Source: Aigarchaeota archaeon
GTDB lineage: Archaea; Thermoproteota; Nitrososphaeria_A; Caldarchaeales; Calditenuaceae
DNA: 32,000 bases
Reading direction: 5' to 3'
Assembly (NCBI GenBank): GCA_025059745.1
Contig: JANXDH010000006.1
Span: 35,343-67,342 of the forward strand
Shown here: positions 2,496 to 23,716 of the stretch, piece after piece
How positions within the stretch are numbered: the stretch's first letter is position 1
How the letters are laid out: every line of letters starts with the position of its first letter
Made by a program: the position numbers and the translations under genes
Notes under the pieces: generated by a model
What the model was told of the DNA's origin: nothing
Seen by the model: the letters and a program-made list of their open reading frames with translations, nothing else
Database searches by the model: none

Positions 2496-2596
2496 GGACG
2501 TGTATGAAGGTGGAGAAGTACGTTACTTCATCTATCGAAGAGCGAGATATGTGATGGATAATGGAAAAGTTCTTGGTCACGTTCTCTCCTTCCTAG

Positions 2597-4524: not shown

Positions 4525-4743
4525 TGAAATTATTAAAAATGATGAAATGAGAGCCCCTCGAATACTCTTTCACCGTTTAGGGCAAACTAGTGCTTGCGTT
4601 GTTTAGTACGGACATGAACGCACCCTTTGCGATAGAGGTCCTAGCTATCCTTGTTACAAACATAACTACTTCGTTGAAGGAGAGAGAACAAGTCTATTAA
4701 TAGCAACAAACACATAAAAATAAGCTCTCATTAAAGGTACGTT

Positions 4744-5277
4744 ATGAAGGACGGTGGGGAGCTAGTAAAGTACTTGTCTTTAGCAATCTCTGTACTAGTC
4801 GGGTTAACTCCTATCGTCGTTGCGTTTCACCAACATAGCTGGAACCTCCAAAGCCTCATTACTCCTATTTACTCCCCGCCTAGAGTGGACTACTCGATTG
4901 AGATAAAGGAAGCAGTCATATCTGAGCGAGAGCGAGTGGTTCAATTGACCTTTGAACTCAGTAACTTGGGCGATGTTGGATTTTCGGTGAGGGAGTTGAG
5001 AGGTAAGGCGGTCTTAGCTGGGGAAATAACAACGCCCATCGAATTAACTCAGGCCATTGACTTACCCCCAGCCACCAGAGGCACGATGACTATTAAGCTG
5101 CCTCTCGACGAGTCGGCTGTCCTCAAACTCGTACCCTTTATCATGACTAAAGAGAGAATAACGGTAGAGATAACTAGTTCATTGAACGTCCACGTGTTGA
5201 GTTCAATGGTTACTGTGCCTTTTCGCACGTCATTAACTATCGAATCTTCTAAATTACACACGACTGATAGGCCATGA
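4744..5277 (+). CDS. Hypothetical membrane-anchored protein: one N-terminal TM helix plus a beta-rich ectodomain, possibly LEA_2/WHy-like
   Basis: 177-aa ORF with the hydrophobic segment LSLAISVLVGLTPIVVAF. The rest shows an alternating beta-strand-like pattern (VQLTFELSNLGDVGFSVRELRGKAVLAG). A TATA-like CATAAAAATA lies about 25 nt upstream. Confidence 0.55.
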   Translation: MKDGGELVKYLSLAISVLVGLTPIVVAFHQHSWNLQSLITPIYSPPRVDYSIEIKEAVISERERVVQLTFELSNLGDVGFSVRELRGKAVLAGEITTPIELTQAIDLPPATRGTMTIKLPLDESAVLKLVPFIMTKERITVEITSSLNVHVLSSMVTVPFRTSLTIESSKLHTTDRP

Positions 5278-5843
5278 ACTTACTTCATATACTAACCATC
5301 AACCGTAGGCTAAACATTGTTGCGTTAGCTAGCTCTCTGCTTTTACTCTATGTGGCCCTCTCCGAAGACCCATGGTGGGTGGTAACGGGAGGGAGTGAAG
5401 AGAGTCCCACTTTCGTCGTTAAGATCTCTCCATTTATCTTTGACATGAGCATATTGGAGAAGGAGGTGCTGATCCTCATTATCCCGTACCTTAACCTCGC
5501 GGCCAAACTAACGCTTCTACTCACCTCTTTAATGATGCTGGTGGGGTCTTTCATGGTAAAGAAGAGGTGGTCAAGATACCTTGTGAGCACTAGAGGAGCT
5601 ACTTTTCCGATAGTCTTCCTCGTGGGGCTCTTTTTGGGGTCTTTTGTAGCGTCGTCGTATATCGGTTTCAGTATCCCAATAGTTGGCGAGTTCACAGTAA
5701 ATTTCACTATACCTTATGGAGAAGGACTTATCACTGTTATTACACCATCGAAGGCCTCACTGACGGGGATGTTTTGGATTGCGGTCGCGGTCGGTCTAAG
5801 CTCGTTGCTAGGTAAATTAATTCATAACAGGTCTCTTCGATAG
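5274..5843 (+). CDS. Hypothetical multi-pass (about 4 TM) membrane protein
   Basis: 189-aa ORF with four long hydrophobic stretches. Its ATG overlaps the upstream stop (ATGA), which suggests translational coupling. Confidence 0.5.
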   Translation: MNLLHILTINRRLNIVALASSLLLLYVALSEDPWWVVTGGSEESPTFVVKISPFIFDMSILEKEVLILIIPYLNLAAKLTLLLTSLMMLVGSFMVKKRWSRYLVSTRGATFPIVFLVGLFLGSFVASSYIGFSIPIVGEFTVNFTIPYGEGLITVITPSKASLTGMFWIAVAVGLSSLLGKLIHNRSLR

Positions 5844-5845
5844 AT

Positions 5846-6997
5846 TTGACGATAAAAGTGAGAAAGCAAAATATTTTGATGGTATCAGCTTTCCCTCCCG
5901 ATAAAGGGAGATTGAGCGAATACGCCGCGGCTTTGATAGGTGAGCTGATTAAGAATTATGATAACATACGTGTAGAGATATTGTCTGATTCGGGCTCCCA
6001 CCAATCTGACAGGATTACGGTAAAGACGTCATGGCGCGCGGACGACGTCATTAGCGTACTGAAGTTGTGGACCAGAATAATCTCCTCGAAAGTCAAACTT
6101 GTTCACTTTAACCTACACATGGCGGTATTTGGGAGAGGTAGAGTAGTTAATTTCTTTGGACTACTATCAGTATTTATCGCTCGGATGTCTGGAAAGAAGG
6201 TGATAACAACGCTACATAACATTCCTGCTGGGATAAGGTTGGAATCTGTAGGAATAATTGCTAATACTATTGTGAATAGAATAGGGCTCTGGTTGGCTAC
6301 TGTGCTTGTTGTAAAGAGCTCTCATGTTACTGTGGTAAAGATGAAGAGTTATACAAGTATTGTAGAGCAGTTGTATGGCGCTAAGAGGGTCGTATGGATT
6401 CCTCATGGGGCATGGTTTACAGACAAGCAACCTACCTGGCGCTATAGCGGTAAGGGAAACATACTCTTCTTAGGATATATAACACCTTATAAAGACCTCC
6501 ACGCTTTGATTAAGGCTGTGAAGAGAATAGCAGAGAAGAGCAAGGTTAAGCTTTTAATTAGTGGGGATGTTCATCCGAACTTCCGCGAGGAGGGACAGAA
6601 ACTATTAGAATCGATTAAAGATGACCCTTGTGTACTATTCTTAGGGTATGTTCCAGATAACGCTCTACCTGAACTTATAAAAGAGATAGACGTAGTTGTG
6701 TTACCCTACAGGACCTCAACAGGTACGAGCGGAGTAGTACACGTGTTAAGCGCCCTTGGATGCCCATTTGTCGTCTCCGACACCCCGGAATTTAGAGAAC
6801 TTGAAAGAGAGGGAGCGGGGTTTCTCGTAACCCCACTTGAACCAAATAGGCTCTCAGAAAGCATAGAGAGAATACTCTCCAATCCAGATCTTGCTCATGA
6901 ACTATCATGGAAGTCTGTTAAATTCGCTCATTCTAGATCCTGGCAGAACGTAGCTAAGGCATACATGCAGCTGTACTCTGAGTTGATTAAGAACTGA
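5846..6997 (+). CDS. Family 4 (GT-B fold) glycosyltransferase
   Basis: NILMVSAFPPDKG N-terminus and a C-terminal LPYRTSTGTSGVVHVLSALGCPFVVSD...EREGAGFLV block (GT4 E-x7-E-like region). The start is TTG 5846 or GTG 5858. Confidence 0.85.
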   Translation: MTIKVRKQNILMVSAFPPDKGRLSEYAAALIGELIKNYDNIRVEILSDSGSHQSDRITVKTSWRADDVISVLKLWTRIISSKVKLVHFNLHMAVFGRGRVVNFFGLLSVFIARMSGKKVITTLHNIPAGIRLESVGIIANTIVNRIGLWLATVLVVKSSHVTVVKMKSYTSIVEQLYGAKRVVWIPHGAWFTDKQPTWRYSGKGNILFLGYITPYKDLHALIKAVKRIAEKSKVKLLISGDVHPNFREEGQKLLESIKDDPCVLFLGYVPDNALPELIKEIDVVVLPYRTSTGTSGVVHVLSALGCPFVVSDTPEFRELEREGAGFLVTPLEPNRLSESIERILSNPDLAHELSWKSVKFAHSRSWQNVAKAYMQLYSELIKN

Positions 6998-7001
6998 AAA
7001 C

Positions 7002-8711
7002 ATGTTCGATCGTTTCAAAATAAACCTTGTGGTAGCAGCCGTTCTTACTGCAGTAACTGCTGAGAGTTTAGTGCAATTGACTCAGATTTATCGGTTTAGC
7101 TATGATGCGTATACGCACGTTTTCTTCGCAGATCACTACAGGAGAGATTGGTTTAATCTCTGGGATGATAGATGGTATGGAGGGGTCAGCGTTACCACAT
7201 ATCCGCCTCTCACCCATCAGTTAATGGCCCTCATAAGCTTTCTTCTTAATCTTGAGATGGCTTATCAGGTGATTGCGATTCTCGCATATGGTTTGTTGTC
7301 TTACTCGATATATCTATTTTCAAGAATATTTCTTACAGAGGGGGAGGCTCAATACACGGCATTTGTGGGCTCCCTGCTTCCAGCAGCAGGCCTCGTGTTA
7401 AACGCTTTCGGTCAATTACCGACTGTTTTCTCAACAGCATTAGCATTGATAGCTGCTTACAAATATAGTAAGTACTTGGAAGATGGATCTGTGAAGAACC
7501 TGGTTCAGGCGAGTCTGTGGACCTCATCATCAGGTCTGGCTCACCACTTTACATTCCTCTTCTTTGTTCCGTTAACTCAGTTAACCGTACTAATCCTATT
7601 CTTAAGGAGGGGAAAGTTCATGGTCAAAAGGACACTTCTCCATTTATTGTTGACGGCCGCTGTCCTTGTTCTAATATTATGGCCTCTAATTAATTCTGCA
7701 ACACAGGCACTATCATTGAAAGAGATACCGCATGCTACGCGAGAAAATCTTTTCTTAAATTTCATATCTTTAGCTGTATTCTTCTGGGGCGTCTACAGTT
7801 TCACAATTTTACTTTTACCAAACGCTATTGCCATAGCGCTGAGGAGGAGGGACCTATTACCTTTATTGGCACTCTTTATAGTCCTATTTTTATTCGGACT
7901 CGGCGGGACGACTCCGTTACCGAGACTGGTGCTTGGATCACTATGGCAAGTACTAACATATGATAGATTTGCGTTCTGGGCTATGGTGACTTACTCCCCC
8001 TTCCTTGGAATCATGTTAGCGGATGCAGATATCTTTACCAGAAAATACTTCTGGGGGGATAGATTAAATTCAAAAAAGGGCCCTGTTAAGACTCTTCTCA
8101 TAATGTCTTTTTTTGTGGGACTGATAATTTCTTTTGGTATCGTCTCAGGAAGTGTTGTCATTCTTGGTCTTCAACATGAGGACCTTCTTAGTTCAGATCA
8201 GTTGGAGAGATTAGCGAGTTTTTTGGACACTAATTCCGAATGGAAATATATAACGTTAGGTCTAAATAGTCAAAGGTTTTTGCTCAGCGCAAAGACATCG
8301 GCTACAACACTTGATGGTGGATACAATCATGCAAAGACTAATCCCTTGCTAACGGAGAGTGGGGTCGAGAGTTTAGACGCTGCCAAGCATTTTCCAAATG
8401 GATTGTCGCTCTTGAAGAAAGTGCTGAGGGAGGAGTCTAACAATGGCTTAAAATACGTTATATCAGCAGATAGATATTATGATTATATATTAAGAGAGAA
8501 TGGCCTGCGGCCACTATTTACTCTGTATGGTCCAAAGAACGTGACTGTTTGGGAGATACCATATGCTATGTCTATAAAGGGAGAGCCAAGTCATAAAGAA
8601 TCCTCCAACATCGTAGTGACCGCGTTATGGTCCTTGGGTCCCTTGACAATTTTAGCCGCGAGCATAATTCTCGGAGTTTTTGATAAAGGATTGAGAAGAT
8701 GGAGTCACTAA
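7002..8711 (+). CDS. Polytopic membrane protein, putative GT-C-fold glycosyltransferase
   Basis: 569 aa with about 11-13 hydrophobic helices. The first loop is acidic/aromatic (YDAYTHVFFADHYRRDWFNLWDDRWYGGVSVTTYPPL). A soluble region of about 170 aa is followed by a terminal TM helix. Confidence 0.6.
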   Translation: MFDRFKINLVVAAVLTAVTAESLVQLTQIYRFSYDAYTHVFFADHYRRDWFNLWDDRWYGGVSVTTYPPLTHQLMALISFLLNLEMAYQVIAILAYGLLSYSIYLFSRIFLTEGEAQYTAFVGSLLPAAGLVLNAFGQLPTVFSTALALIAAYKYSKYLEDGSVKNLVQASLWTSSSGLAHHFTFLFFVPLTQLTVLILFLRRGKFMVKRTLLHLLLTAAVLVLILWPLINSATQALSLKEIPHATRENLFLNFISLAVFFWGVYSFTILLLPNAIAIALRRRDLLPLLALFIVLFLFGLGGTTPLPRLVLGSLWQVLTYDRFAFWAMVTYSPFLGIMLADADIFTRKYFWGDRLNSKKGPVKTLLIMSFFVGLIISFGIVSGSVVILGLQHEDLLSSDQLERLASFLDTNSEWKYITLGLNSQRFLLSAKTSATTLDGGYNHAKTNPLLTESGVESLDAAKHFPNGLSLLKKVLREESNNGLKYVISADRYYDYILRENGLRPLFTLYGPKNVTVWEIPYAMSIKGEPSHKESSNIVVTALWSLGPLTILAASIILGVFDKGLRRWSH

Positions 8712-11329
8712 ATCTTCAGAGAATATTCATCCGGGAGAACATCATCAGGTACGCTCTCCCCATAGCGTCGGCAACGTTATTGATGACTGTGATCATATTC
8801 ATCCTCGGAGAGCCTTTTTTCAATACGCCGTACCTGCCTGGTAATCGAGGGTCAATAGAGTACGCATATCTCACAGGGGTAGCTGAAAAGATGGGCTTCG
8901 GCCGCCCCTATACATTCTACTCATTGTTGACGCACTCCTTAGCTTTGTTTATGGATAATTTATTAGATGCAGCAAAGATTTCAGCGTTAACGCTCCTCGC
9001 TATCTATCTAACAAGTACGTACCTCCTCGCATCTCTTTATTCTTCACGCTGGATAGGCCTTCTCGCTCTTCTAAGCGCGTTCCTACCACCCGTCTATGAT
9101 ACGCTCTTCAAGGGCGACTACATGTCTTTAAGCGTAATTACATTCACCGCACCTTTACTCATCGGATTAACTTTACTCTACCGCGAATCTCATATGAGGA
9201 GGGGGATGGTCTTTGCATCGTTAGGGGTATTGGCTCTTCCATTTAGCGACCCGACCTTGCTGCTTATGATTACCATAGCTATTCTTCTCTCATTAACGAC
9301 ACTATATATGTTAAAAAGACGTTTGCTGGTTCATGTTATTACACTGGGTTCACTTTTGGCTGGGACGTCCTCCCTCTCATTCACGCTAAACGCCTCGTTT
9401 ACGGATGAATTATGGAAAACTAATCCGTTGGATCACCTGACATCCAATGTAGTAATTACTTCAGCGCTTATAGTCGCTGCCTCTGTGGGTGCCCTCAGCT
9501 TATATCAAGTTGGGCGTAAGAGAGAGTTGAGTCTAATTCTCGTCTGGATATTGGTAGTAATCGTGTCCTCACCGTTCCAACCAATGATCTTGGTAACTCT
9601 AATCCCGGTCCTGTCAGCTCTCTCATCCTCTCCTTTAATCTATTGGAATGAGGCAATAAAAGTTAGAAAAGTAGCTAAAATTGAGGAGACGCCTTATTAT
9701 GAGCTAGAGATAGACCATACTCAAGTCTTAAGATGTATTACTGCCGTCATGCTGGCCTCGTTACTGGTTTTAACCGTACCGTTGGCTATTGCGTCAGGAA
9801 ATAATGAGACTCAACACGCTCATAAGGTAAAAGAGGTGGAGGAGGCTTCCAAATTTCTTAAGACTATCTCGAGGGGGGAGCTTATTGTTGCTCACCCTTC
9901 CATTGCTAACTGGTTATCTGCTTCGTCAACTCTAAAGGTCCTGCCCACGGTAAACTCAGAGTCGTTCGAGATTGCAGATCTTTTAACCTCGTCAAGCTTT
10001 AGGGTCGTTACCCAGTATCTCAAAATCGATGATAGGGAGCCTTTCTCGGCAGCTAGGGCGCCTCTCATACAAATATATGATGGGAAAAGATACAGACCTT
10101 TCCTGTATATTGATGACTCTTATATTAAAATAACTCTGAGGGGGCCTGAGGGCAAAGATTTCACTGAAAGCCCTTACAAGGCTCGCTTCCTTGGGTACAG
10201 ATGGAACGAGACTGAAACGGAGATATTGCTCGCGTTAAGGTTCCAGTCAGCTGGTCTGTTTATAAATAAAAGCATCGTCGTGAGTAAGTATGATGCAAAA
10301 GTTAAGATTGAATACAGCGCCAGAGTCTTTAAGCAAGGGTATAAAGTAGTTTCCCTCATGCTAAATGTCTATAGTGTTGTCTTGGCTGAACTACCGCAGT
10401 TAACCATAGAAGAGACAAGGGGATATATGAAGATCGATGAGCATCTATTTCTCATTGATTATTCGGGAAATCTGGTAAAACTCTCTCATGATAAGACTAA
10501 GGATCAAAGGTTCACGGTAGGGCTTTTCCAACCTTCTACCGAGTTTACCGTGAAGGGGGCTGTAACTATCAGTTCACCTACAGCGTTGAGCTCTGGACGT
10601 AAGCCGTGGTACGCATCCTTTATGGATTTGGTTGAGAAGCTGGCTGTGAAGTACGTGGTCATTCCGAAAGAAAATAGAGATTTTCTCAAAGACGCACTAC
10701 CCGTTGATGTAGAGAACCTCGTAGTGAAAGACTCGTTTGTAAGATACATAATAAGTAGTGAAGGGAAGTTGTACCACGAGGCTCCAGCCTATGCTCTCGT
10801 TCTAAATGAGACTATAAACCCAGAAATGAGGGAGGTCTGGTATAAGACCGCTGGCCTTAACATCAAAAAGGTCATAAGAGCGTCAGACAGCACGAGTGTT
10901 GACATTACTTATGAGGCCAGACCTCATAAGAGAGACACGTATCTTATCGCATCGACGTTGTCTATATGGATTGATTGGAATAGGTTTGTTCTCCTCTTCA
11001 GAGTTGACGAAAGTAACAAGACCTTGAAGTTATCCCTCGACTCGGCTACATTTACAATTCGTATTAAGGGAAATGTGACGGGCGTCGTGATGGAGTTGCA
11101 TCCTGAATACAAGCAGAGCAGGATCTTGGTTACTTACTCTCTCAATCCAGAAGCGGCTATGTTTGGCCTTTCCATAGAATCTAACAACCCCCTAATCGCC
11201 AAATATGAACCAACGACAAGGCCCGAGATGAGAGAGGAGGACGTTTTGACAATCCTTACTGAGGAGGGGTTCTTTAAACCTTTAAAGGAGTTGAATCTTT
11301 ATATAGTATTCGAGATAACTCCGCCATAA
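8699..11329 (+). CDS. Large polytopic membrane protein (about 370-aa TM domain plus about 500-aa extracytoplasmic domain) with STT3/AglB-like layout but no WWDYG motif
   Basis: 876-aa ORF overlapping the upstream gene by 13 nt. It has many TM helices followed by a long beta-rich soluble domain. I found no WWDYG motif by eye. Confidence 0.6.
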   Translation: MESLNLQRIFIRENIIRYALPIASATLLMTVIIFILGEPFFNTPYLPGNRGSIEYAYLTGVAEKMGFGRPYTFYSLLTHSLALFMDNLLDAAKISALTLLAIYLTSTYLLASLYSSRWIGLLALLSAFLPPVYDTLFKGDYMSLSVITFTAPLLIGLTLLYRESHMRRGMVFASLGVLALPFSDPTLLLMITIAILLSLTTLYMLKRRLLVHVITLGSLLAGTSSLSFTLNASFTDELWKTNPLDHLTSNVVITSALIVAASVGALSLYQVGRKRELSLILVWILVVIVSSPFQPMILVTLIPVLSALSSSPLIYWNEAIKVRKVAKIEETPYYELEIDHTQVLRCITAVMLASLLVLTVPLAIASGNNETQHAHKVKEVEEASKFLKTISRGELIVAHPSIANWLSASSTLKVLPTVNSESFEIADLLTSSSFRVVTQYLKIDDREPFSAARAPLIQIYDGKRYRPFLYIDDSYIKITLRGPEGKDFTESPYKARFLGYRWNETETEILLALRFQSAGLFINKSIVVSKYDAKVKIEYSARVFKQGYKVVSLMLNVYSVVLAELPQLTIEETRGYMKIDEHLFLIDYSGNLVKLSHDKTKDQRFTVGLFQPSTEFTVKGAVTISSPTALSSGRKPWYASFMDLVEKLAVKYVVIPKENRDFLKDALPVDVENLVVKDSFVRYIISSEGKLYHEAPAYALVLNETINPEMREVWYKTAGLNIKKVIRASDSTSVDITYEARPHKRDTYLIASTLSIWIDWNRFVLLFRVDESNKTLKLSLDSATFTIRIKGNVTGVVMELHPEYKQSRILVTYSLNPEAAMFGLSIESNNPLIAKYEPTTRPEMREEDVLTILTEEGFFKPLKELNLYIVFEITPP

Positions 11330-11330
11330 C

Positions 11331-12308
11331 GTGAATAAATTGAAGAGACTTGGTTATTATGAGTTTGCAGTAGTCATGCTCATAATAGTTGCGAGCTTCT
11401 TGCCTCTAATACGCACTGAGGACGTCTGGAGCGGTTTCGGTAGCCACGGATCCCATTTCTATAAGAGTGGTTTCTATGAGTTATATTACTCCGATCATAC
11501 TTCGGGAGTGGGGAAACCTGAGATTTACTTAACAAATGGGCATGATAGAACACCCCTTATTGAGTTCAGTGACCACACCTCTTGGATAGGCTGGCTCAAT
11601 CTTTACTATGACTTTGAGGTAAGAGTAAAAACGCATGATTCAATTCTAGAGGCAGCATATAATGGAGGGGGGGTTGAGTTAATTAAAACCGTAGAGCCTG
11701 GCGAAAAGTACATCAAGGTCAAATACTATTCAAGTAACCCTCAGGCAAATCTTACCGTATCGCTATGGAGATGGTATTTCGAAGATGTTAGTGGAATTAC
11801 CAAGTACAATTGGAGGGTATCAAAAATCCAACCCGTTAACGAATTGAGATTCTCTTTCCGCTCGTCCGAGACTATCTGCGAAGCCAAGCTACTCATCTAC
11901 CCTCTCCCTAAAGAAATATTAGTTAATGGTGACCAGTTAGGAATAGACAAGATAGTTTTGTCTTTTGAGGCTAAAACTGTTGAGTTAGCGCTGGAAGCTG
12001 ACACAGGCTGTCTCAACAACAGCATAACGCTCTCATCAATGTACATCTATCCGATCATAGCAGGTGTTCTCTCAGCAGGGTATCTGGTGCTCAATCGATT
12101 TTGCAATAACGTAAGAACCATAGATCGCTGGAGTAAGGTCTTCGATTCCTCGAGCTCGAGAGTGCTAAGAGAGCCGCTGTTTTTAGCTTTGGCTAGTGGA
12201 ATGATTAGGCTAGCTTTAGCCCCTTTTTCATGCATACATGGGATGTCACGACCGTCCAAGAATCAATGGAGGACTTTCTCTCTGGGAGAAATGTCTATGA
12301 GACTGTGA
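11331..12308 (+). CDS. Membrane protein (TM, about 215-aa ectodomain, two TM helices); probably the N-terminal part of the next gene
   Basis: GTG start 2 nt after the upstream stop. The last predicted TM helix (LFLALASGMIRLALAPF) ends exactly at the heptamer C CCT TTT (12221-12227), where the -1 frame of ORF 12230..13399 is already open. Confidence 0.55.
   Translation: MNKLKRLGYYEFAVVMLIIVASFLPLIRTEDVWSGFGSHGSHFYKSGFYELYYSDHTSGVGKPEIYLTNGHDRTPLIEFSDHTSWIGWLNLYYDFEVRVKTHDSILEAAYNGGGVELIKTVEPGEKYIKVKYYSSNPQANLTVSLWRWYFEDVSGITKYNWRVSKIQPVNELRFSFRSSETICEAKLLIYPLPKEILVNGDQLGIDKIVLSFEAKTVELALEADTGCLNNSITLSSMYIYPIIAGVLSAGYLVLNRFCNNVRTIDRWSKVFDSSSSRVLREPLFLALASGMIRLALAPFSCIHGMSRPSKNQWRTFSLGEMSMRL
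12221..12227 (+). other. Candidate -1 frameshift site (X XXY YYZ heptamer C CCT TTT) joining ORF 11331..12308 to ORF 12230..13399
   Basis: The zero frame reads GCC CCT TTT TCA. A -1 slip gives CCC TTT TTC ATG CAT ACA TGG, that is ...LALAPFFMHTWDV. The -1 frame is open from 12209. A weak stem (12241-12245 pairing with 12253-12257) lies 13 nt downstream. Confidence 0.35.
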
Positions 12309-13399
12309 GCGAGAAGACGGAGATGCTCAGAGAACTCAACGGTGTTGATGCCAGCTACGAGGGATACACCTATCTTCCACATCTTCTATTTATCTACGCC
12401 CCGTTCTACTTCATATACAAGCTTGTAACTGATGGGAGACCTCCGATTTCCGGCGGACACTTTGAAGGACCGTTTATGTTAATCGAACCCAACATTTATG
12501 TCTTCTTAGTTCTGATCAAGGTTCCGATAATCATAGCGGATGCCGCAATAACTTACACGCTAGCTGTGAAATCTCACAGGATAGGGCTGATCTATGCGTT
12601 TCTCCCCTATTCTATAACAATAACTTCGATATGGGGAGCCTTTGATCCATTAGTCGGACTCCTCTTACTTCTGACAGCTATGAATCTAGATAAACGGCCG
12701 TTGGTAGCAGGTCTGCTCTTCGGGATTGCAGTTATGAAACTATATGTGATCGTTACTTTACCAGCTATTCTGCTCTATTTCTCCAAGAATAGGAGGAACC
12801 TCGTCGTATTCCTAATAGGCCTGACGGCCTCTCAGATCCCTACGCTATTGTTCCTCATCCAGAACCCTGAGACCATGTTGAATAGTATATTGTTCCACAC
12901 CTCTAGATCTCCGGGTGGTGTGAATTTTCTTCATTTAGCGCCGAAACTTTATAGTTATGATTTGCAATCGTTTGTCAATAAGCTTGCCCTTTTAACCCTC
13001 GGTATAGCTGTTTCGGTACTCGCCCTCAAGTCCGGTAAGGGGTTCGGTAGGTACCTAGTCCCTTCTCTAGCCGCTTACATGGCTATTGGGCCAGTAACGA
13101 ATGAACAGCACTTATCTAGTATATTGCCTCTCCTCTTTTACAGGGGAAGGTCGTTACTAGCGTTGTGGCTTTCTTATGCTTATCTTTTTTACGCATTACT
13201 ATACTCGGGGCCTGCATACTATACACGCCCAATATCCGCTATTTCAGAAGATTTAAATGACATTCTGTTGATCATAAACCAATCGTGGTACGCTATTTTC
13301 GCCGATATAACTTCACAACTGCTTTATGGTTTAGCCGTAATTTGCTCGTTGACACTCTTCCACGCCATAAAAGGTTTCGTTCAAAAAGTCGCTGCATAG
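12230..13399 (+). CDS. GT-C-fold glycosyltransferase core, PIG-M/DUF2029-like (probably lacks its own first TM helix)
   Basis: It starts directly with an acidic loop (HTWDVTTVQESMEDFLSGRNVYE...YEGYTYLPH) followed by about 10 TM helices. In GT-C enzymes this loop normally follows TM1 and faces outside. Confidence 0.6.
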   Translation: MHTWDVTTVQESMEDFLSGRNVYETVSEKTEMLRELNGVDASYEGYTYLPHLLFIYAPFYFIYKLVTDGRPPISGGHFEGPFMLIEPNIYVFLVLIKVPIIIADAAITYTLAVKSHRIGLIYAFLPYSITITSIWGAFDPLVGLLLLLTAMNLDKRPLVAGLLFGIAVMKLYVIVTLPAILLYFSKNRRNLVVFLIGLTASQIPTLLFLIQNPETMLNSILFHTSRSPGGVNFLHLAPKLYSYDLQSFVNKLALLTLGIAVSVLALKSGKGFGRYLVPSLAAYMAIGPVTNEQHLSSILPLLFYRGRSLLALWLSYAYLFYALLYSGPAYYTRPISAISEDLNDILLIINQSWYAIFADITSQLLYGLAVICSLTLFHAIKGFVQKVAA

Positions 13400-13409
13400 T
13401 TCAAGAGAG

Positions 13410-13415
13410 TTTTTT
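13410..13415 (+). terminator. Oligo-T tract after ORF 12230..13399
   Basis: A T6 run lies 11 nt after the TAG stop (13397-13399), matching the archaeal oligo-T termination signal. Confidence 0.35.
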
Positions 13416-13489
13416 GTGGGAAGCCCAATGATCAGGATTGGGATTCGGATAAGACTGACATTGAGTCCCTAAAGTAGGCTGACTTGTAA

Positions 13490-14566
13490 ATGAGTCTACA
13501 AGTTATATTCCTGTCTCTAACCTCTAGGGTCAGTGTAATAATAATTGCCCTATTAGCTTCTCATTTTTTAATAATTAGGCAAGTTAGTTCGTGGAGCGTT
13601 GATGTTCCATTAGTTGGTTTGTTTGTTCGCTGGGATTCTGCATATTATCTGACGATATCTCAGCATGGGTTTGTAGAGGAAAACCTGTGGGCGTTTAGAC
13701 CGATTTACCCTCTATTTTTAAGAGCTGTCACTTTGACAAATCAACCCACATGGGAGTTTTTATCCATTGTAGGCTTCGTAGTGAGTAACGCATTTTTCGT
13801 CTTAGCAGTCTACTACCTGTATAAACTAACTAGTCTACTTTTTGACAAAAACACATCATGGAACTCTGTGAAGTTCTTTTGTTTAGCGCCCGGCACCGTT
13901 TATTTTTCAGCCATCTACCCAGACTCGATGTATCTATTTTTCTTGTTTTCTTCTTTCTACTTCTTAGAGAAATCAAAGTATCACATTTCAGCGCTTTTTA
14001 TGACGCTCGCAGTCTTGACTAGGCCTGAGGGCGTTTTGGTAAGCCTCGTGTATCTTTTTGTCAATAAAATTGAAATGAGAAAGAAAAAGATCAGAATATT
14101 GTTAGTCCGCAACGTACATTATGCTATAGGATTAATCCTAATATTTATGAGCTATCCGATTTTCGCTTTGGCTAGCTCAGATCTCTTTCGTCCCATTTAC
14201 TCAGCCCTAAAGTGGGATACATGGACTATCGTTCAATTTTTGCAACCGTGGTGGACTACTGAACCAGATTTCTTTCCAGCTATTGCTGCATGGCTAACCT
14301 TATTATTGTCGGCCATCGCCTTCTCTTTTGGAATTAAATCATTCCTTCGTGATAATTTATCTAAATATTACATCTGGAGTTTATGTACATTTTTTGTTCT
14401 CGTATTTGTCGGTGATTTCCGTTCATTACCGAGGCTCTCTGCCCAGTTAATAGTTGTTTGGTGGTTTTTCTCACAGAATAAACTCCGCAAGGGGTGGTTG
14501 TTCTTGTTTGCTCTTTTATCAACCCTGAGCACTATACTGTTTATAACATGGCATCCGTTACTCTAA
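13490..14566 (+). CDS. GT-C-fold mannosyltransferase-like protein, PIG-V/Gpi18 (GT76)-like
   Basis: RWDSAYYLTISQHGFVEENLWAFRPIYPLFL closely follows the PIG-V signature as I recall it (RWD[AS]..[FY]L.IA.HGY..E...AFFP). The protein has about 8-9 TM helices. Confidence 0.7.
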   Translation: MSLQVIFLSLTSRVSVIIIALLASHFLIIRQVSSWSVDVPLVGLFVRWDSAYYLTISQHGFVEENLWAFRPIYPLFLRAVTLTNQPTWEFLSIVGFVVSNAFFVLAVYYLYKLTSLLFDKNTSWNSVKFFCLAPGTVYFSAIYPDSMYLFFLFSSFYFLEKSKYHISALFMTLAVLTRPEGVLVSLVYLFVNKIEMRKKKIRILLVRNVHYAIGLILIFMSYPIFALASSDLFRPIYSALKWDTWTIVQFLQPWWTTEPDFFPAIAAWLTLLLSAIAFSFGIKSFLRDNLSKYYIWSLCTFFVLVFVGDFRSLPRLSAQLIVVWWFFSQNKLRKGWLFLFALLSTLSTILFITWHPLL

Positions 14567-14582
14567 TCTTGGTCTGGGTGTT

Positions 14583-15131
14583 ATGAACGATACAGAAATA
14601 ACATTAAGAGTGTTTGAACCGAGGGACTCCGAAAAAGTGATAGATTTCTTTACTAGACTGTCAGAGAATACGATTAGGAATTATACAAGATTCGGTTTTC
14701 CCTTAGACATTGATAGTGTTAAGAAACACTTAAGCTGGGTAACTGAAAGCGGATCCGAAATGGAGAAAATATTCATTGCAATAGTGGGCGATAAGGTAGT
14801 CGGTTTGGGTCACTTGACCTTTTTTCAAAAAACTTGGAAAAAACACGTTTGTACCCTAGGAATTGTCATCGAGGACGGTTGGCAGGGAAAGGGGATAGGT
14901 AAAAGTATAATGAATTACATGATATCTTTTGCTAAACAAAAAGGTATTAAAAAAGTGTGGCTTTCGGTATATGCTGATAATCTACGAGCGCGACAACTTT
15001 ATGAGAAAATGGGTTTTGTTGTGGAGGGAATTTTTATCAATGAAGAGATATTTGGTGGGGTTGCGCGGCATGTTATATCGATGGCCCTATTTTTGGACGA
15101 AACATATAAGCCTGATAAGACGACAGGCTGA
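14583..15131 (+). CDS. GNAT-family N-acetyltransferase
   Basis: Acetyl-CoA binding motif A, WQGKGIGKSIM, then ...VWLSVYADNLRARQLYEKMGFVVEG. Confidence 0.85.
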   Translation: MNDTEITLRVFEPRDSEKVIDFFTRLSENTIRNYTRFGFPLDIDSVKKHLSWVTESGSEMEKIFIAIVGDKVVGLGHLTFFQKTWKKHVCTLGIVIEDGWQGKGIGKSIMNYMISFAKQKGIKKVWLSVYADNLRARQLYEKMGFVVEGIFINEEIFGGVARHVISMALFLDETYKPDKTTG

Positions 15132-15171
15132 TTTTATAGGATGGCTTAATGAGTAGTGGCTAAGACGAGAG

Positions 15172-17268
15172 ATGAGAATTAAAATAACGTTTCATTTCAT
15201 AAGAGAGGCGTTGCATAGCAGCGTAGCCGCTTTAATAATCCTTGCCGGTAGCGCTCTGCGCATTTACCTGGCCTTATTTAACCAATATATAGAGTATGAT
15301 GAGGCCGTTTTTCTTGACATGGTCAGATTATTTTTGAATGGTAACATTATATATAGTGATTTTTTGTTATTCAAAACACCTTTACATGTTTTGTTCTCAT
15401 CGATCTTTGTCATAGTTTTTGGTGATGCAATTTTATCCCTCCGGTTTTTCAGCATCTTCATGAGCCTCTTTACCATGTTGCTATTGTATGTGATAGTGAG
15501 ATTATGGTTGAATACTCTGTATGCTCATATGGCATTGGTGTTTTATTCTTTCTCCCCTATCAGTATTGAATTTGATACAATTGGTAAGGCTGAATCGATG
15601 TTTGTTGCCTTCTCTATGCTCTTTTTTTATCTTATTTCAAGATTATTAATTTTCGGAGGTAAAAAAAATCTTGTTCTCTTGAGTTCTATCGCGGGTGCAT
15701 TGTTAGTATTATCTCACGTTCGAGTCTTCATCCCTATGTTTTTAGGTGCCTTAATTTTCTTGATAATTCAAAGAAGATTTAAAACTGCGTTATTAATATT
15801 CAGTTTTACGTTAGCTTTTGCTACGATTTTCGTTTCACCATTTGTCATTCTAGCTCCATATGATTTCCTTCTAAATGTCGTTATTGTGGCATTGCTCCGG
15901 TATCACCCGTCCGTAGTCAGGCCTCTCGATATTTGGAGCCAGGCTTACTCTGTTTATCCACTTGAGTTCATGCTCGGTTTTGGTTATCTTATACCAATGT
16001 CTGTAATGTCTTTTATTTGGCGAAAAGAAAGTAAGAAAGAGAAGAAATTTGTTCAATTTGTGAGCGTTTTAGCAATCGCCCACATACTTTCGTTTACTTT
16101 CCTGTTCCCATTTCATTACGTGTACCTCATGTATGGATTTTTCTCCATCTTCGTATTGGGATTCGTTTCTTTGTTGGTACTGATCAACTCGTTATGGCGA
16201 GCATATTCCCGACGTAAAATTTTAAGTATATTTCTTTTGAGTCTAGGATTAATCTCTTTTGCCTCGGTTAGTATTATCGGACATAAGGAGTACGTTGAGT
16301 TCTTCTCTAGATATGAGTTCGCAACAAGCACCCAGGATATACCTGCGGAGAATATAAGAAATTTAACGAGAAATTTGTTTAGTAATAAAATATCATATGC
16401 TACGTTTGTCCCTAAATTCGCTTATTGGGTTGATGGGAAGCTCGAGTATTTGTCCAATGAATATAAGAGCCTTGATTCTATTGGAACTTTTGAGTTCTTC
16501 ACTATCAAACGAGCCTTAAATGAAACCGGAGGAATATTAAACCAGTTATTCCTTATTCTGTTCAATAGGCAAGAGCTTCATAACAATTGGGCTAGATTAC
16601 GTGGTGAGACTGTTAAATACATCATGGATGATTTAGTAAAAAGGGCCGAGGTCATAATATATAGTGAAGAAGTGAAATCATATATTCCGGAAGTTGATCT
16701 ACTTTATATTCTATCAAATCACTATGCATTCCTTTATCAGGAGGGGCCGTATATAGTTTTTGTTAAATTAACCGAGTCTGGAGTTAACAGCATTAATCTG
16801 CTCTCTTTAGAGTGGATTCCTGAATCGTGGTTTGGGTTGAACAGGCCAGGGACCGATTTCGGCTTGAACCATGAGGGAGAAAATAAAGTGATTTGGATTA
16901 ATTTCAAGAACAATACCGAACAATGGGTTCAATATAAAGTTGCTATAGAGGGGATCGAATTAAGGCCAAACATCTTGATGAGCGTAAAATTGAGTTCAAA
17001 TTGTCCCCAGAATTCTGTCGTGTTCAACTGGGAAATTAAAACGGTTAAGGGAACTATTAGAAAAATATATTCAACTCCTCACATATTCGTAACACAGAAA
17101 GATGAAGAAATCAGATTGACATATGATCTAACATCCCTACTCAGTATAACTGCACGGGAAGAGGTTGATGAAGTTGTTAGGATGTATATTGGCTTTATAA
17201 ATGTGTCCAAAAGAGCGTGTGAGGCGAGCTTCACTTTTAATGACTTGACGTTTCATTTAGAGAACTGA
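15172..17268 (+). CDS. GT-C-fold glycosyltransferase, PMT_2/ArnT-like, with an extracytoplasmic C-terminal domain of about 330 aa
   Basis: 698 aa. The first loop reads YIEYDEAVFLDMVRLFLNGNIIYSDF (a DE-containing loop as in ArnT/PMT-type enzymes), with about 11 TM helices and then a soluble domain. The gene is very AT-rich. Confidence 0.6.
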   Translation: MRIKITFHFIREALHSSVAALIILAGSALRIYLALFNQYIEYDEAVFLDMVRLFLNGNIIYSDFLLFKTPLHVLFSSIFVIVFGDAILSLRFFSIFMSLFTMLLLYVIVRLWLNTLYAHMALVFYSFSPISIEFDTIGKAESMFVAFSMLFFYLISRLLIFGGKKNLVLLSSIAGALLVLSHVRVFIPMFLGALIFLIIQRRFKTALLIFSFTLAFATIFVSPFVILAPYDFLLNVVIVALLRYHPSVVRPLDIWSQAYSVYPLEFMLGFGYLIPMSVMSFIWRKESKKEKKFVQFVSVLAIAHILSFTFLFPFHYVYLMYGFFSIFVLGFVSLLVLINSLWRAYSRRKILSIFLLSLGLISFASVSIIGHKEYVEFFSRYEFATSTQDIPAENIRNLTRNLFSNKISYATFVPKFAYWVDGKLEYLSNEYKSLDSIGTFEFFTIKRALNETGGILNQLFLILFNRQELHNNWARLRGETVKYIMDDLVKRAEVIIYSEEVKSYIPEVDLLYILSNHYAFLYQEGPYIVFVKLTESGVNSINLLSLEWIPESWFGLNRPGTDFGLNHEGENKVIWINFKNNTEQWVQYKVAIEGIELRPNILMSVKLSSNCPQNSVVFNWEIKTVKGTIRKIYSTPHIFVTQKDEEIRLTYDLTSLLSITAREEVDEVVRMYIGFINVSKRACEASFTFNDLTFHLEN

Positions 17269-17280
17269 CTTGGAGATCAG

Positions 17281-17290
17281 CTATAAATTG
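17281..17290 (+). promoter_or_regulatory. TATA-like box upstream of the DPM1-like GT2 gene
   Basis: CTATAAATTG is centred about 31 nt upstream of TTG 17316. An in-frame TAA at 17307-17309 excludes any earlier start. Confidence 0.3.
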
Positions 17291-17315
17291 AATCTTAGAA
17301 ATAAGATAATTTGAG

Positions 17316-17996
17316 TTGTACGTCTCAATTGTAATACCGACGATTAACGAGGCTCAGAACATTCCTGTAATATTTGAAAGGATCAAGAATACGTTGAAAG
17401 GCTACAAATATGAAATCGTAGTGGTCGATGATAACAGTTCTGATGATACAGTCGGTATAGCGACTTCGTTGGGAGCAAAAGTCATAAAGCATGACTTTAG
17501 GAGGGGAGTTGGTTATTCTGTTATGGAGGGGGCCGTGAATTCCCGCGGAGATATAGTCGTCATTATGGATGCTGACGGTAGTCATGATCCAGCTATCCTA
17601 CCCAATTTGGTTAGAATGGTCGAAGACAAATATGATGTCGCGAAAGCATCACGGTTTATTCATGGCGGTCATATGGAAGAAAGAGTCATTTCAACAGTTC
17701 TGTTCAATATCATTGCGAAGATGCTTTTAAACATTAAGGTTAACGATATAACTGGAGGTTACCTTGCAGCTAAAAAAGAATGTTTCAATATACACCCTTT
17801 TTTTAACGATGGTAGGTGGATTCTTTGGTTCATGTTTTCGAACAGAACAAGGAAAATAATCGAGGTACCATATATATACAGAAAGCGAGTTACTGGTTAT
17901 TCAAAGTATGGTGGAATTAAACATTTAAAAAGGGGATTTAATTATTTTTCTTGTCTAATCCACCTCTTAATGTTACGATTAATAGCATCAAGGTAA
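17316..17996 (+). CDS. Polyprenyl/dolichyl-phosphate sugar synthase (DPM1/GtrB-like GT2)
   Basis: VSIVIPTINEAQNI, YEIVVVDDNSSDDT and VVIMDADGSHDP motifs, typical of dolichol-phosphate mannose/glucose synthases. TTG start. Confidence 0.8.
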   Translation: MYVSIVIPTINEAQNIPVIFERIKNTLKGYKYEIVVVDDNSSDDTVGIATSLGAKVIKHDFRRGVGYSVMEGAVNSRGDIVVIMDADGSHDPAILPNLVRMVEDKYDVAKASRFIHGGHMEERVISTVLFNIIAKMLLNIKVNDITGGYLAAKKECFNIHPFFNDGRWILWFMFSNRTRKIIEVPYIYRKRVTGYSKYGGIKHLKRGFNYFSCLIHLLMLRLIASR

Positions 17997-18090
17997 GTAT
18001 GCATCCACAGATTTTTCCCTATGTAGATATTGCGCATCTGAATAAAGAGGCCTGTGAACCCTAAAGAGACTATCGAACTATTGATGCATC

Positions 18091-19362
18091 ATGTTTCCGA
18101 CTAATACGCCACATAAGGGTCGAGATGTAGAACGTCGACTCATAGAATTAGATGCTTTTAGAGGTTTTGCCCTACTTTTAATGATACTTATGCATAACAT
18201 GTGGACGTGGGGGCCACCTAGTATTAGAGGTGGACTTTGGTCCTTAGGTGACCTGTACTTCGGAGCCTCGGCATCTATCTTCTTCGCTGCATCTGGTGCG
18301 GCAGCACATATCCACGTAAAAAAGTCCTTGAGATATGGGACACTCAAGGAGACCGTCCTATTTGCTATATCGCGCGCTGCACTACTTTACTCTATCGGTA
18401 TAGCGTTCGAGCAGATCTGGCGCCCTCCTCCTTATTCATTGACCTTTTTCGCTGAATTAAATACAATTGCGGCGATCTCGGTGATCGTTCTTGTTCTAAA
18501 TCTTTTTACTAAGACAACACAAGTACTCATCCTAATTTTGAGTGTGTTCTCTTATTTTCTACTGAGGTATGTTATCGTGCTTACTTCGTTGGGTGGTGGA
18601 GAATATGCATTTGTTCCATGGCTAACTGACAAACCGATTATCCAATTTAACACAGGTCACTTACTTTTTCAAGTCGCGCTAGAGTTTTGCTATTCAACTT
18701 TAATGTGGGGAAGCTATGGTGTTTTAGGAGCACTCCTTATTGCGTTTCACTTAACTAGTCACCAGATAGCCCGTAGAGTAGGAGCTGGTGGGTTAGCGTT
18801 AATGTTATTAGGTTACATTCTCCACGTACATTTTTTATCTCCATTCCAAAAGTGGCCGATGTCGATCAGCTATTTCTTCTTTGCAACGGGGTTCACCATG
18901 TTCGTTTTCTGGTCTTCAACGCTTATAGCTTCAAGCAGGTTCACCAGGTTCTCAGTTATCCTTTCTGCATTAGGGCGGAACACTCTTAGCTTCTATTTTT
19001 CTCATTATTTTATATTATGGTTCACAGAATTAATAGGATTCGTTAACCTAGTTTGGAGTATCCCAACCTCTATCGTAGGCTACTGGGTTTCTGCAATTTT
19101 AGCTGTGACGGTGTTGACGTTTACTGTGCTTGCGTACGTTTTTCGTAATTTCAATTTAATCAAGTCATCTAGGTTAAAACGATTACCTAATTGGACGTGT
19201 TTTCTTATTGCCATATCGGTTTCTATAATGATCGTATTGTACGTAGATTACGGTCAAACCATTACGAATGCCCTAGGGGTGTCTAACGAGTATCAGTATT
19301 TTCTTATAGATGTGGTGATAACGACTATATGGTACATGATCTTTCGCATTTTAAGAGTTTAA
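18091..19362 (+). CDS. Integral-membrane acyltransferase, DUF1624 / heparan-alpha-glucosaminide N-acetyltransferase-like
   Basis: N-terminal signature LDAFRGFALLLMILMH followed by about 10 TM helices. Confidence 0.7.
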   Translation: MFPTNTPHKGRDVERRLIELDAFRGFALLLMILMHNMWTWGPPSIRGGLWSLGDLYFGASASIFFAASGAAAHIHVKKSLRYGTLKETVLFAISRAALLYSIGIAFEQIWRPPPYSLTFFAELNTIAAISVIVLVLNLFTKTTQVLILILSVFSYFLLRYVIVLTSLGGGEYAFVPWLTDKPIIQFNTGHLLFQVALEFCYSTLMWGSYGVLGALLIAFHLTSHQIARRVGAGGLALMLLGYILHVHFLSPFQKWPMSISYFFFATGFTMFVFWSSTLIASSRFTRFSVILSALGRNTLSFYFSHYFILWFTELIGFVNLVWSIPTSIVGYWVSAILAVTVLTFTVLAYVFRNFNLIKSSRLKRLPNWTCFLIAISVSIMIVLYVDYGQTITNALGVSNEYQYFLIDVVITTIWYMIFRILRV

Positions 19363-19381
19363 CAGTAAAAGTGATTCGTGA

Positions 19382-19387
19382 TTTTTT
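19382..19387 (+). terminator. Oligo-T tract after the acyltransferase gene
   Basis: A T6 run 20 nt after the stop at 19360-19362, within TTTTTTGACAAAAAA (a T6/A6 inverted repeat). Confidence 0.4.
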
Positions 19388-19832
19388 GACAAAAAACTCG
19401 AGATTTATCCTTCTTGAGTGATAGAATAAGCGCGTAACATACTGACACCACACATACCGCCGGTCTCTATTCGGGGTGGTAAAGTATTGAGTTTCGGTAA
19501 CGTTCGTTTATGGAACCATCGTCTATTGTCACCCTGACCTCGAGCCTAAGCGCCTTCTCAGGGCATTGTTTGAAACCGCTTGGTGAATACTATGGTGTAA
19601 TACACTTTCTCCTCTGAAGAGCTATGACGAGGAATCAATTCGGGTCCCTGTCTTTGATACTTAACTTGTTTTGGATACCATACTATTGCGATCGAAGAAA
19701 TACGCTAGGTTTATGTTTCTGATACACATTATAAGTACTTTGAGTGAAGTAAGACATTGTTTTAAAATTCAACCCCCCAATTCTTACAAAAATATACTTA
19801 AATTTCAGTATATTAAAATAAGCACATTAGCT

Positions 19833-23421: not shown

Positions 23422-23603
23422 CTATCTTAAAGTTGACGCGTTCGAGGTCTGAGGTTTTAAAACACGAATTTCAGGAGTTAGGAGTGAGAACAGGGTTGAG
23501 GGATGAGTGAGGCATTGTAAACAACTATGAGACCTCTTAACTCCGTTTAAGTTAATAACTGTAAGAGTGAGTTAGGGCACTGAGACACACACTAAAGATT
23601 GAT

Positions 23604-23696: not shown

Positions 23697-23716
23697 TACT
23701 CATTATCCTTGCGGGG

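Follow-up and report, generated by a model that had tools for sequence, protein, structure and literature searches.

The stretch analysed here is a 32-kb window of contig JANXDH010000006.1, which belongs to a hot-spring metagenome-assembled genome (MAG) labelled 'Aigarchaeota archaeon' at NCBI and placed by the NCBI taxonomy in the phylum Nitrososphaerota. All coordinates refer to the whole window, and the analysis covered these 32 kb of the genome. The window contains a sugar island (1-23.4 kb), and the conserved core of this island is an operon of a GT4 glycosyltransferase and four different membrane glycosyltransferases of the GT-C type, with lengths of 569, 876, ~700 and 358 amino acids (aa). 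The best reading, to which we give a probability of about 0.7, is that the island builds a cell-surface glycan on the outer face of the membrane from polyprenyl-phosphate sugars. The protein families or predicted folds, the conserved gene order and the conserved acidic residues in the loops of the membrane proteins are shown by the analysis, and they carry this reading. The window also adds several components to the core, including a fifth GT-C of the PMT_2 type, a synthase similar to dolichol-phosphate mannose synthase (DPMS), a membrane acyltransferase, and enzymes for dTDP-rhamnose and an N-acetylated amino-dideoxy sugar.

The presence of four distinct GT-C families and a GT4 in one operon suggests that this uncultured 'Aigarchaeota' lineage makes a complex surface glycan or a lipoglycan on the outside of its membrane. 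No archaeal gene set was found described for such a pathway; literature searches on the cassette, on PF10131, DUF2079 and PF04188 in archaea, on the Aigarchaeota envelope and on archaeal lipoglycan biosynthesis returned no earlier description. The operon contains a predicted GT-C family that has no curated profile, represented by the 876-aa protein with its large β-sandwich domain. The operon also includes a widespread pair of a GT4 and a PTPS_related-type GT-C, which is coupled to Wzy_C in bacteria. Moreover, PIG-V-type and PIG-M/GT87-type enzymes are found side by side in a TACK archaeon, which bears on the origin of the GT-C enzymes of the endoplasmic reticulum (ER) lumen, a question left open in PMC4973528.

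An earlier note, made from the sequence of the window, had listed a GT4, large polytopic glycosyltransferases, a DPM1-like synthase, an acyltransferase and a GNAT on the + strand at 5846-19362, and all of these are present. Its count of five or six GT-C proteins is settled at five, because the supposed sixth is one half of a frameshifted gene.

The membrane proteins as GT-C enzymes

Families were assigned by searches of Pfam, NCBIfam and the PDB sequences, using curated bit-score cut-offs; the membership of the Pfam families in the GT-C clan CL0111 was taken from PMC7801869. GT-C enzymes are defined by three features: 7-13 helices in one domain, a small outside domain that follows helix 1, and lipid-linked donors (PMC11127046). 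In Pfam scans, single orthologues of the 569-aa, 876-aa and ~700-aa proteins had no significant match, and therefore structure prediction and wider homologue sets were needed. On this combined evidence (profile searches, AlphaFold2 models compared by Foldseek, and the Pfam matches of relatives), the five polytopic proteins are of the GT-C type as had been proposed: two by a Pfam cut-off, two by predicted fold, and one by transitive homology. A hydropathy scan found 6-9 strong transmembrane (TM) segments in each of them, and positive charges precede the first TM helix (TM1). The loop after TM1 carries an acidic residue in the 569-aa protein (D35), in the open reading frame (ORF) of 389 aa (D5, in an HxWD motif), in the PIG-V-type protein (D49), and in the PMT_2 protein (the D43-E44 pair).

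Two proteins exceed curated cut-offs. The fourth GT-C enzyme, a PIG-V-type (Mannosyl_trans2) protein of 358 aa (13490-14566), matched Pfam PF04188 with 65.9 bits against a cut-off of 22.4 (E 5.7e-18), a match that spans only positions 55-216 of the 443 in the profile. The PIG-V signature reported in the earlier note (RWDSAYYLTISQHGF...AFRPIYP) was found, and D49 in the WDS of the first loop is invariant in nine homologues. This protein also matched the NCBIfam model 'cell surface glycopolymer formation protein' under its cut-off (4.4e-9). The fifth enzyme, of the PMT_2 type and 698 aa in length (15172-17268), matched PMT_2 with 40.2 bits against a cut-off of 26.1 (E 5.1e-10) and had no NCBIfam match. 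Its PMT/ArnT-like YDEA loop, described in the earlier note, is at residues 42-45 after TM1, and a C-terminal domain of ~330 aa is also present. PDB searches with sequences or profiles of these two proteins, the 569-aa and 876-aa proteins, and the N-terminal ORF of 325 aa were unproductive.

The first GT-C enzyme (7002-8711; 569 aa) belongs to a PTPS_related/DUF6541-like family. Its AlphaFold2 model, built with 34 homologues (pLDDT 93), shows ~12 TM helices, a small α/β domain on the outside, and one last TM helix. The best 30 Foldseek matches in the PDB were all GT-C proteins, led by STT3 (E 1.1e-6, query TM-score 0.52). Other fold matches include ArnT, PglB, AglB, AftD and ALG12, with ALG12 and ALG3 among the weaker ones, and the TM-scores for STT3, ArnT, PglB and AftD are all close to 0.5; transporters appeared only at non-significant E-values. 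The PTPS_related match of the protein itself was sub-threshold in Pfam; among 34 relatives, 11 matched PF10131, three PMT_2 and two DUF6541. The family is large (>555 matches) and includes archaea as well as bacteria labelled Anaerolineae or Anaerolineales, and the first-loop D35 is nearly invariant.

The second enzyme (8699-11329; 876 aa) represents an orphan family, for which no Pfam, NCBIfam or PDB sequence match was found even with all ten homologues scanned. Its AlphaFold2 model (pLDDT 80) has ~11 TM helices in residues 1-370, followed by a large, mostly-β outside domain with strands from ~434 to 876. With E-values of 4e-5 to 9e-4, Foldseek related the membrane part to PglB (4e-5, query TM-score 0.31-0.33), AglB, AftA and DPY19; its matches for the C-terminal part were the β-sandwich domains of glycoside phosphorylases, polysaccharide lyases and GH38 mannosidases, and YidC P1. 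Comparison by hhalign aligned helices 2-5 with the equivalent positions of the 569-aa family at 86% probability. Residues E54 and E63 are nearly invariant within a poorly modelled loop (pLDDT <50 at residues 48-69). The protein is accepted as a probable GT-C on these grounds, and is the least certain of the five. About ten homologues were found in all; profile scans found one locus in the species-representative genomes and five in metagenomes, and the family is thus rare in those collections.

The 569-aa and 876-aa proteins had been described as having an STT3-like layout. STT3, AglB and PglB are indeed their best structural matches, and a membrane domain followed by an outside domain is common to all of them, so that the resemblance holds for layout and fold. 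It does not extend to an oligosaccharyltransferase (OST) identity: neither WWDxG nor W[WYF]DxG was found in any membrane protein of the window, there is no STT3 Pfam match, and the outside domains have other folds. Since WWDxG is absent, no protein of the window is considered an OST, and this identity was rejected.

The third enzyme (11331-13399; ~700 aa) is GT87/PIG-M-like: a signal anchor at the N-terminus is followed by ~210 aa of outside domain and then by a GT-C module. Its sequence is divided in the window between two ORFs, 11331-12308 (325 aa) and 12230-13399 (389 aa). The 389-aa ORF itself matched GT87 weakly (E 0.035, 14.3 bits against a cut-off of 25), and three orthologues had no match; a weak precomputed GT87 match exists for the orthologue in the related contig L011. 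A HMMER search with this ORF collected 85 relatives, and 68 were scanned against Pfam: 33 matched GT87 (best 1.5e-14), 15 PIG-M, ten PIG-U, seven ALG3, three ALG6/8 and three PMT_2. The HxWD aspartate is nearly invariant. These sequence matches support the GT87/PIG-M-like assignment at the superfamily level, which is the level at which the earlier description of a PIG-M/DUF2029-like protein can be upheld. A DxD in the first lumenal loop is a hallmark of PIG-M, and no DxD occurs anywhere in the 389-aa sequence.

The two ORFs of this enzyme are one gene. They align end to end with a single 698-aa orthologue (48% and 60% identity), and the DNA alignment showed that the window is 1 nt short of the orthologue in the run CCCCTTTTT, with the missing base in the run GCCCCTTTTTC. 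This 1-nt deletion relative to the orthologues is located at the site C_CCT_TTT (12221-12227, + strand). In L002, L006, L009, L011, L017, L018 and L021 the two halves run on in a single frame. The break in the window comes immediately downstream of the TM helix that leads into the catalytic HxWD loop, and is therefore not a natural domain boundary.

Read in the upstream frame, the site C_CCT_TTT is also a canonical -1 slippery heptamer of the X_XXY_YYZ form, and a -1 slip there gives LAPFFMHTWDV, which matches the orthologue junction LAPFFMHAWDV. Programmed -1 frameshifting was disfavoured, because the downstream RNA folds no better than shuffled sequences (z = 0.40) and no such site exists in the orthologues; for the same reasons a deletion or an assembly error is more likely. 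In contig L013 (12448-14513) the GT87-like protein is encoded as two overlapping genes (261 aa and 427 aa, with a 4-nt overlap). A natural gene split of this kind was rejected for the window: the split in L013/14 precedes TM1 of the GT-C module and the break in the window follows it, so that these are different events.

Conservation of the cassette in related contigs

The first gene of the cassette (5846-6997) encodes the GT4 glycosyltransferase (Pfam Glycos_transf_1, 1.6e-21), and within the window, start and stop codons of the cassette genes overlap or adjoin. Nine further versions of the cassette, on contigs from MAGs and metagenomes, were traced through homologues of the 876-aa, 569-aa and PIG-V-type proteins and compared by tblastn with all proteins of the window. 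The named hosts are Nitrososphaeria, Nitrososphaerota, Caldarchaeum and two 'Korarchaeota'. In all nine versions the GT87-like gene comes after the 876-aa gene. The complete order (GT4, 569-aa, 876-aa, GT87-like, PIG-V-like) is found in L011/12, L017, L018 and L021, and GT4 orthologues with 36-61% identity have the same position in L009-L014, L017, L018 and L021. The place of the PIG-V-like gene is taken by a PMT_2 gene in L009 and by a DUF2079 gene in L013/14, and a distant 724-aa relative of the 569-aa protein lies upstream of the GT4 in L006-8. A DPMS-like GT2 is encoded 0.1-4 kb downstream of the cassette in L002, L007, L011, L013, L017 and L021; in L013 it adjoins a GtrA-like protein. The gene set thus co-occurs in related genomes. 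The GNAT, PMT_2, acyltransferase and sugar-nucleotide genes of the window are outside the conserved cassette and are located in the stretch of lowest GC content.

Two irregularities were observed in the related contigs. The PIG-V-like gene of L018 (7979-8925) is matched as three separate fragments, of which at least two are in different frames; this suggests frameshifts or low assembly quality. In the JGI contig L006 a block of TnpB (OrfB_IS605/Cas12f1-like_TNB), Polbeta and a YdjM-GT2 fusion occurs at 1652-6239 and again at 16328-20780, exactly 14,541 bp apart and flanking the cassette; in L007 and L008 the block is found on the left side only. Tandem duplication, a mobile unit and an artefact of assembly are all possible explanations for the repeated block.

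The pair of GT4 and 569-aa genes is also kept in two bacterial contigs (L015, 8771-12953; L016, 8813-12949); a Wzy_C (O-antigen ligase/polymerase) domain comes after it or is fused to it there, in proteins of ~980 aa. The named sources of the bacterial 569-aa homologues are Anaerolineae/Anaerolineales. The archaeal cassette has the 876-aa protein at the position held by Wzy_C in the bacterial contigs.

The fusion of 569-aa homologues to Wzy_C may also be taken to mean that the GT-C-like proteins, or some of them, have roles other than glycosyl transfer. They might then serve as scaffolds, as transporters, or as polymerases or ligases of diphosphate-linked units, and the locus could be of the Wzx/Wzy type with accessory membrane proteins. 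The 876-aa family, which has no sequence link to any curated family, would fit this explanation, as would the ten GT87-like relatives that match PIG-U, a non-catalytic protein with the GT-C fold (PMC7801869). However, the best structural matches are catalytic GT-Cs only, with transporters non-significant; the acidic first-loop residues are conserved within each of the 569-aa, GT87-like and PIG-V-type families; two proteins are above curated cut-offs of GT-C families; and a lipid-phosphate sugar synthase is co-located in most loci. This explanation is therefore regarded as very unlikely.

Proposed pathway and comparison with known systems

The predicted lipid-phosphate sugar synthase of the window is a GT2 protein of 226 aa (17316-17996). 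Its closest solved relative is the dolichol-phosphate mannose synthase of Pyrococcus furiosus (PDB 5MLZ, E 1.7e-29, over residues 1-200), followed in the PDB by ArnC (6.9e-14) and GtrB (1.1e-8). The protein consists of the catalytic domain only, without the four TM helices of the Pyrococcus enzyme. In NCBIfam the best match is AglJ (5.8e-19), together with the Dol-P (dolichyl phosphate) hexose transferase (8.8e-18) and with PgfS and ArnC at ~1e-17 to 1e-19; every equivalog model is far under its cut-off (for example, AglJ with 68.6 bits against 325). By these sequence comparisons it is classed as a genuine DPM1/DPMS-type polyprenyl-phosphate sugar synthase, in agreement with the earlier note; judged by the NCBIfam equivalogs, it is not orthologous to any one characterised enzyme that would define its sugar. 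A polytopic membrane acyltransferase of the HGSNAT_cat/Acyl_transf_3 (AT3) type is encoded at 18091-19362 (Pfam PF07786, E 9.4e-8, 32.3 bits against a cut-off of 22). This ORF is intact and was called in the Logan assembly (L005); it is absent from the gene list of the NCBI record (L004) despite a 100%-identical tblastn match.

From the families, the gene order and the acidic residues we infer a donor type, a topology, an order of steps, an acceptor and a product as follows. The GT4 and the GT2 encoded at 1449 would begin a lipid-linked glycan at the cytoplasmic face from nucleotide sugars, and the DPMS-like GT2 would charge dolichyl or polyprenyl phosphate with a sugar. Both lipid-linked species would flip to the outer face, where the GT-C enzymes, with their acidic first loops outward, may extend the glycan stepwise using the lipid-phosphate sugar. 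The β-sandwich domains might hold the growing chain, and the AT3-type acyltransferase might O-acetylate the glycan. Some GT-C enzymes are reported to bear carbohydrate-binding modules that hold a polysaccharide acceptor (PMC11127046).

An outside-face assembly line, as the earlier note had proposed, remains the best reading because the locus encodes GT-C proteins with a DPMS-like synthase among them, the gene set co-occurs in related contigs, and there is no orthology to a characterised agl cluster. With regard to the product, a polymeric or lipid-anchored glycan of the lipoglycan or wall-polysaccharide type is favoured over a short N-glycan. This preference is based on the large β-sandwich domain, on the bacterial link with Wzy_C, and on the finding of no OST and no initiating phosphoglycosyltransferase among the called genes of the window or the related loci. 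Archaeal lipoglycans and glycocalyces are known from Thermoplasmatales (PMC4243693).

Several points weigh against this assembly line. No flippase was confirmed in the window, since the candidate at 22015-23421 has no profile match. The DPMS-like enzyme could instead be an initiator of the AglJ type, in which case a route to an N-glycan via dolichyl phosphate would gain weight; AglB and other partners may also be encoded beyond the examined 32 kb. The GT-C fold can be non-catalytic, as in PIG-U (PMC7801869), whose model is matched by 10/68 of the GT87-like relatives. The GT-C call for the 876-aa protein comes from the single 86% hhalign match and from a predicted fold whose TM-scores are modest (0.26-0.33 of the query) because of the large extra domain. 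Finally, one GT-C gene is frameshifted, and the pathway may thus be defective in the genome of the window.

The N-glycan route is a rival reading. In an agl-type pathway, the DPMS-like GT2 and the GT4 would assemble an oligosaccharide on dolichyl phosphate, the GT-C enzymes would add outer sugars to the N-glycan, either on the lipid or already on the protein, in the manner of AglD, AglR and AglS of Haloferax, and an AglB encoded elsewhere would transfer it to an S-layer protein. Haloferax volcanii gives an archaeal precedent for a DPM1-like GT2 with a PMT-related outside transferase: its system includes the Dol-P sugar synthases AglJ and AglD, along with AglR and with AglS, a Dol-P-mannose mannosyltransferase of the outer face (PMC4973528). 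The best NCBIfam match of the GT2 is AglJ and the next is a haloarchaeal Dol-P hexose transferase; the GT4 matches Agl16 weakly, and the island holds sugar-nucleotide genes and a possible flippase. Nevertheless, all Agl equivalog models of NCBIfam are far under their cut-offs and the five GT-C proteins have no Agl match, so that the locus is not orthologous to a characterised agl cluster. Neither an AglB/WWDxG protein nor an initiating enzyme of the AglH type was found in the window or the related loci. Unlike Haloferax, the locus has many more GT-C enzymes, and four to five of them, with large β-sandwich domains and a bacterial Wzy_C link, suit a polymer better. An N-glycan product is thus considered unlikely.

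Among the closest analogues is the mycobacterial and corynebacterial pathway for phosphatidylinositol mannosides, lipomannan and lipoarabinomannan, together with the arabinan pathway (PimA/PimB of GT4; PimE of GT87; MptA/B/C, EmbA-C, AftA-D; Ppm1). The likenesses include a cytoplasmic start by a GT4, a DPM1-like synthase, several GT-Cs (with a GT87 type among them) that extend the chain outside, and an acyltransferase (PMC5964476, PMC11127046); some of those GT-Cs carry carbohydrate-binding domains (PMC11127046). AftA and AftD are among the fold matches of the window proteins. In contrast to mycobacteria, the host is an archaeon with isoprenoid ether lipids, the sequence relation is at the superfamily level only, and nothing in the window points to an inositol-lipid acceptor, mannose or arabinose. 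We know of no mycobacterial counterpart of the 876-aa family or of the PIG-V-type member. A further difference is that the four GT-Cs and the GT4 of the window form one tight operon.

The bacterial three-component systems (GtrA/GtrB/Gtr*, ArnC/ArnT, CsbB/YfhO and the GT136 system) likewise combine a GtrB/DPMS-like synthase with an outside-acting GT-C (PMC11127046). They usually add one side-branch sugar via a single GT-C, whereas the window has genes for four to five distinct GT-Cs alongside a GT4, a combination that suggests that a chain is built rather than decorated. A GtrA-like flippase was not found in the window. Bacterial systems with several GT-Cs have also been reported (PMC11127046). 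Many GT-C enzymes take part in the synthesis of the mycobacterial cell envelope, where aftA-embC-embA-embB are contiguous, and the remark in the earlier note that so many GT-C paralogues in one prokaryotic locus would be unusual was overstated.

The enzyme set has also been likened to the lumenal steps of the ALG pathway and of glycosylphosphatidylinositol (GPI) anchor synthesis in eukaryotes. With regard to the eukaryotic set of PIG-M, PIG-V, DPM1 and ALG3/9/12, the PIG-V-type protein shows homology at the level of its family, relatives of the 389-aa ORF match PIG-M and ALG3, and a DPM1-like synthase is shared. According to Lombard, the ER-lumen GT-Cs appear unique to eukaryotes, and prokaryotes have only distant PMT/DUF2029 relatives (PMC4973528). 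Could the cassette be a prokaryotic relative of the ER-lumen mannosyltransferase set, which makes a GPI-like, lipid-anchored mannoglycan on an archaeal membrane lipid? If this were true, the lumenal GPI/ALG GT-Cs, currently thought to be eukaryote-specific, would have a TACK-archaeal origin; it is judged highly improbable. A pathway homologous to the eukaryotic one would give the GT4 the role of PIG-A, with an inositol lipid as its substrate, and the acyltransferase that of PIG-W; the first two mannoses would be added by the GT87/PIG-M-like and PIG-V-like enzymes from Dol-P-mannose made by the DPM1-like enzyme. For this, the Pfam cut-off of PIG-V is passed, relatives of the 389-aa ORF match PIG-M (15/68) and PIG-U (10/68), the DPMS-like enzyme is real, the order of PIG-M-like then PIG-V-like genes is conserved, and the origin of the ER-lumen GT-Cs is unresolved (PMC4973528).

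However, the partners specific to GPI synthesis were not found. The GT4 did not match the PIG-A (PIGA) domain in the Pfam search. No PIG-L/LmbE deacetylase, GWT1 (PIG-W), ethanolamine-phosphate transferase or C13 transamidase occurs among the family matches of the window ORFs or the called genes of the related loci, and the earlier note had likewise seen neither the deacetylase nor a transamidase in the window. The PIG-M-like protein lacks DxD, only the N-terminal half of the PIG-V profile is matched (positions 55-216 of 443), and the PIG-V-like gene appears dispensable or replaceable, being swapped for DUF2079 in L013/14 and absent in L009. The acyltransferase is HGSNAT/AT3 rather than GWT1, and the same enzyme families serve bacterial non-GPI pathways (PMC5964476). 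A homologous GPI-like pathway is therefore the least probable of the readings, the parallel drawn earlier with the ER lumen is not supported, and the cassette is not evidence for archaeal GPI anchors.

The sugar island and its flanking genes

The genes of the sugar island lie on one strand (+), with a GC content of 0.37-0.47. At its left end, 75-812 encodes a long-form glucose-1-phosphate thymidylyltransferase of the RmlA type (NCBIfam TIGR01208, E 2.5e-94; Pfam NTP_transferase and hexapeptide repeats); the ORF as listed covers model positions 109-353 of 353, with the N-terminal third outside it. It is followed by an RmlC-like cupin, similar to sugar 3,5-epimerases (816-1358; Pfam dTDP_sugar_isom, 2.8e-11; NCBIfam rmlC, 7e-10, under cut-off), the cytoplasmic-type GT2 (1449-2495; Pfam Glycos_transf_2, 3.8e-26), the dTDP-4-dehydrorhamnose reductase RmlD (2597-3511; NCBIfam TIGR01214, 249.6 bits against a cut-off of 224), and a sugar epimerase/dehydratase of the short-chain dehydrogenase/reductase (SDR) family (3508-4524; Pfam Epimerase, 8.1e-44). 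Within 4744-5843 are two small membrane proteins of 177 aa and 189 aa, with one and four TM helices by a hydropathy estimate. Neither had a Pfam or NCBIfam match, nor a tblastn counterpart in any related locus. Their reading frames overlap, and the 189-aa frame ends 3 nt ahead of the GT4 start.

Between the PIG-V-type and PMT_2 genes is a PseH-like GNAT N-acetyltransferase (14583-15131; Pfam Acetyltransf_1, 3.1e-18; NCBIfam PseH, 4.8e-13, under cut-off). Downstream of the acyltransferase, 19671-21823 encodes a DegT/PseC-type sugar aminotransferase and an SDR 4,6-dehydratase/epimerase (Pfam DegT, 5.3e-111, and Epimerase, 5.2e-48; NCBIfam PseC, 9.6e-96, under cut-off), a pair that may supply an amino-dideoxy sugar. 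By their family matches the RmlA/C/D, DegT, 4,6-dehydratase and PseH-like GNAT genes point to dTDP-rhamnose and an acetamido-dideoxy sugar as probable products.

The last gene of the island (22015-23421) encodes a membrane protein with ~13 TM helices by hydropathy, which is possibly a Wzx-like flippase. No Pfam match was obtained at E<=1 (including the Polysacc_synt, MurJ and MATE profiles) and no NCBIfam match; the sole BLASTP link is over 44 N-terminal residues (E 4e-4), to a Polysacc_synt protein of L013. The ~13-TM layout is compatible with a flippase of the Wzx/MOP type; the downstream flippase claimed in the earlier note is unconfirmed.

To the right of the island (23.8-32 kb), with a GC content of ~0.53, are the archaeal housekeeping genes for NifU, SRP54, Pus10, RpoF/Rpb4 and L10e, together with an ornithine/aspartate carbamoyltransferase and an NAC-like UBA protein. 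The GC content climbs from 0.37-0.44 to ~0.53 across 22-25 kb. Near the right-hand end of the island, where the GC content rises, is a tRNA-Thr(CGU) gene on the - strand (23603-23697), detected by both ARAGORN and Rfam. Because this tRNA gene sits where the GC content rises out of the low-GC island, it and the GC step fit an exchangeable or horizontally acquired island. The tRNA gene is 95 nt in length, which is long enough for an intron.

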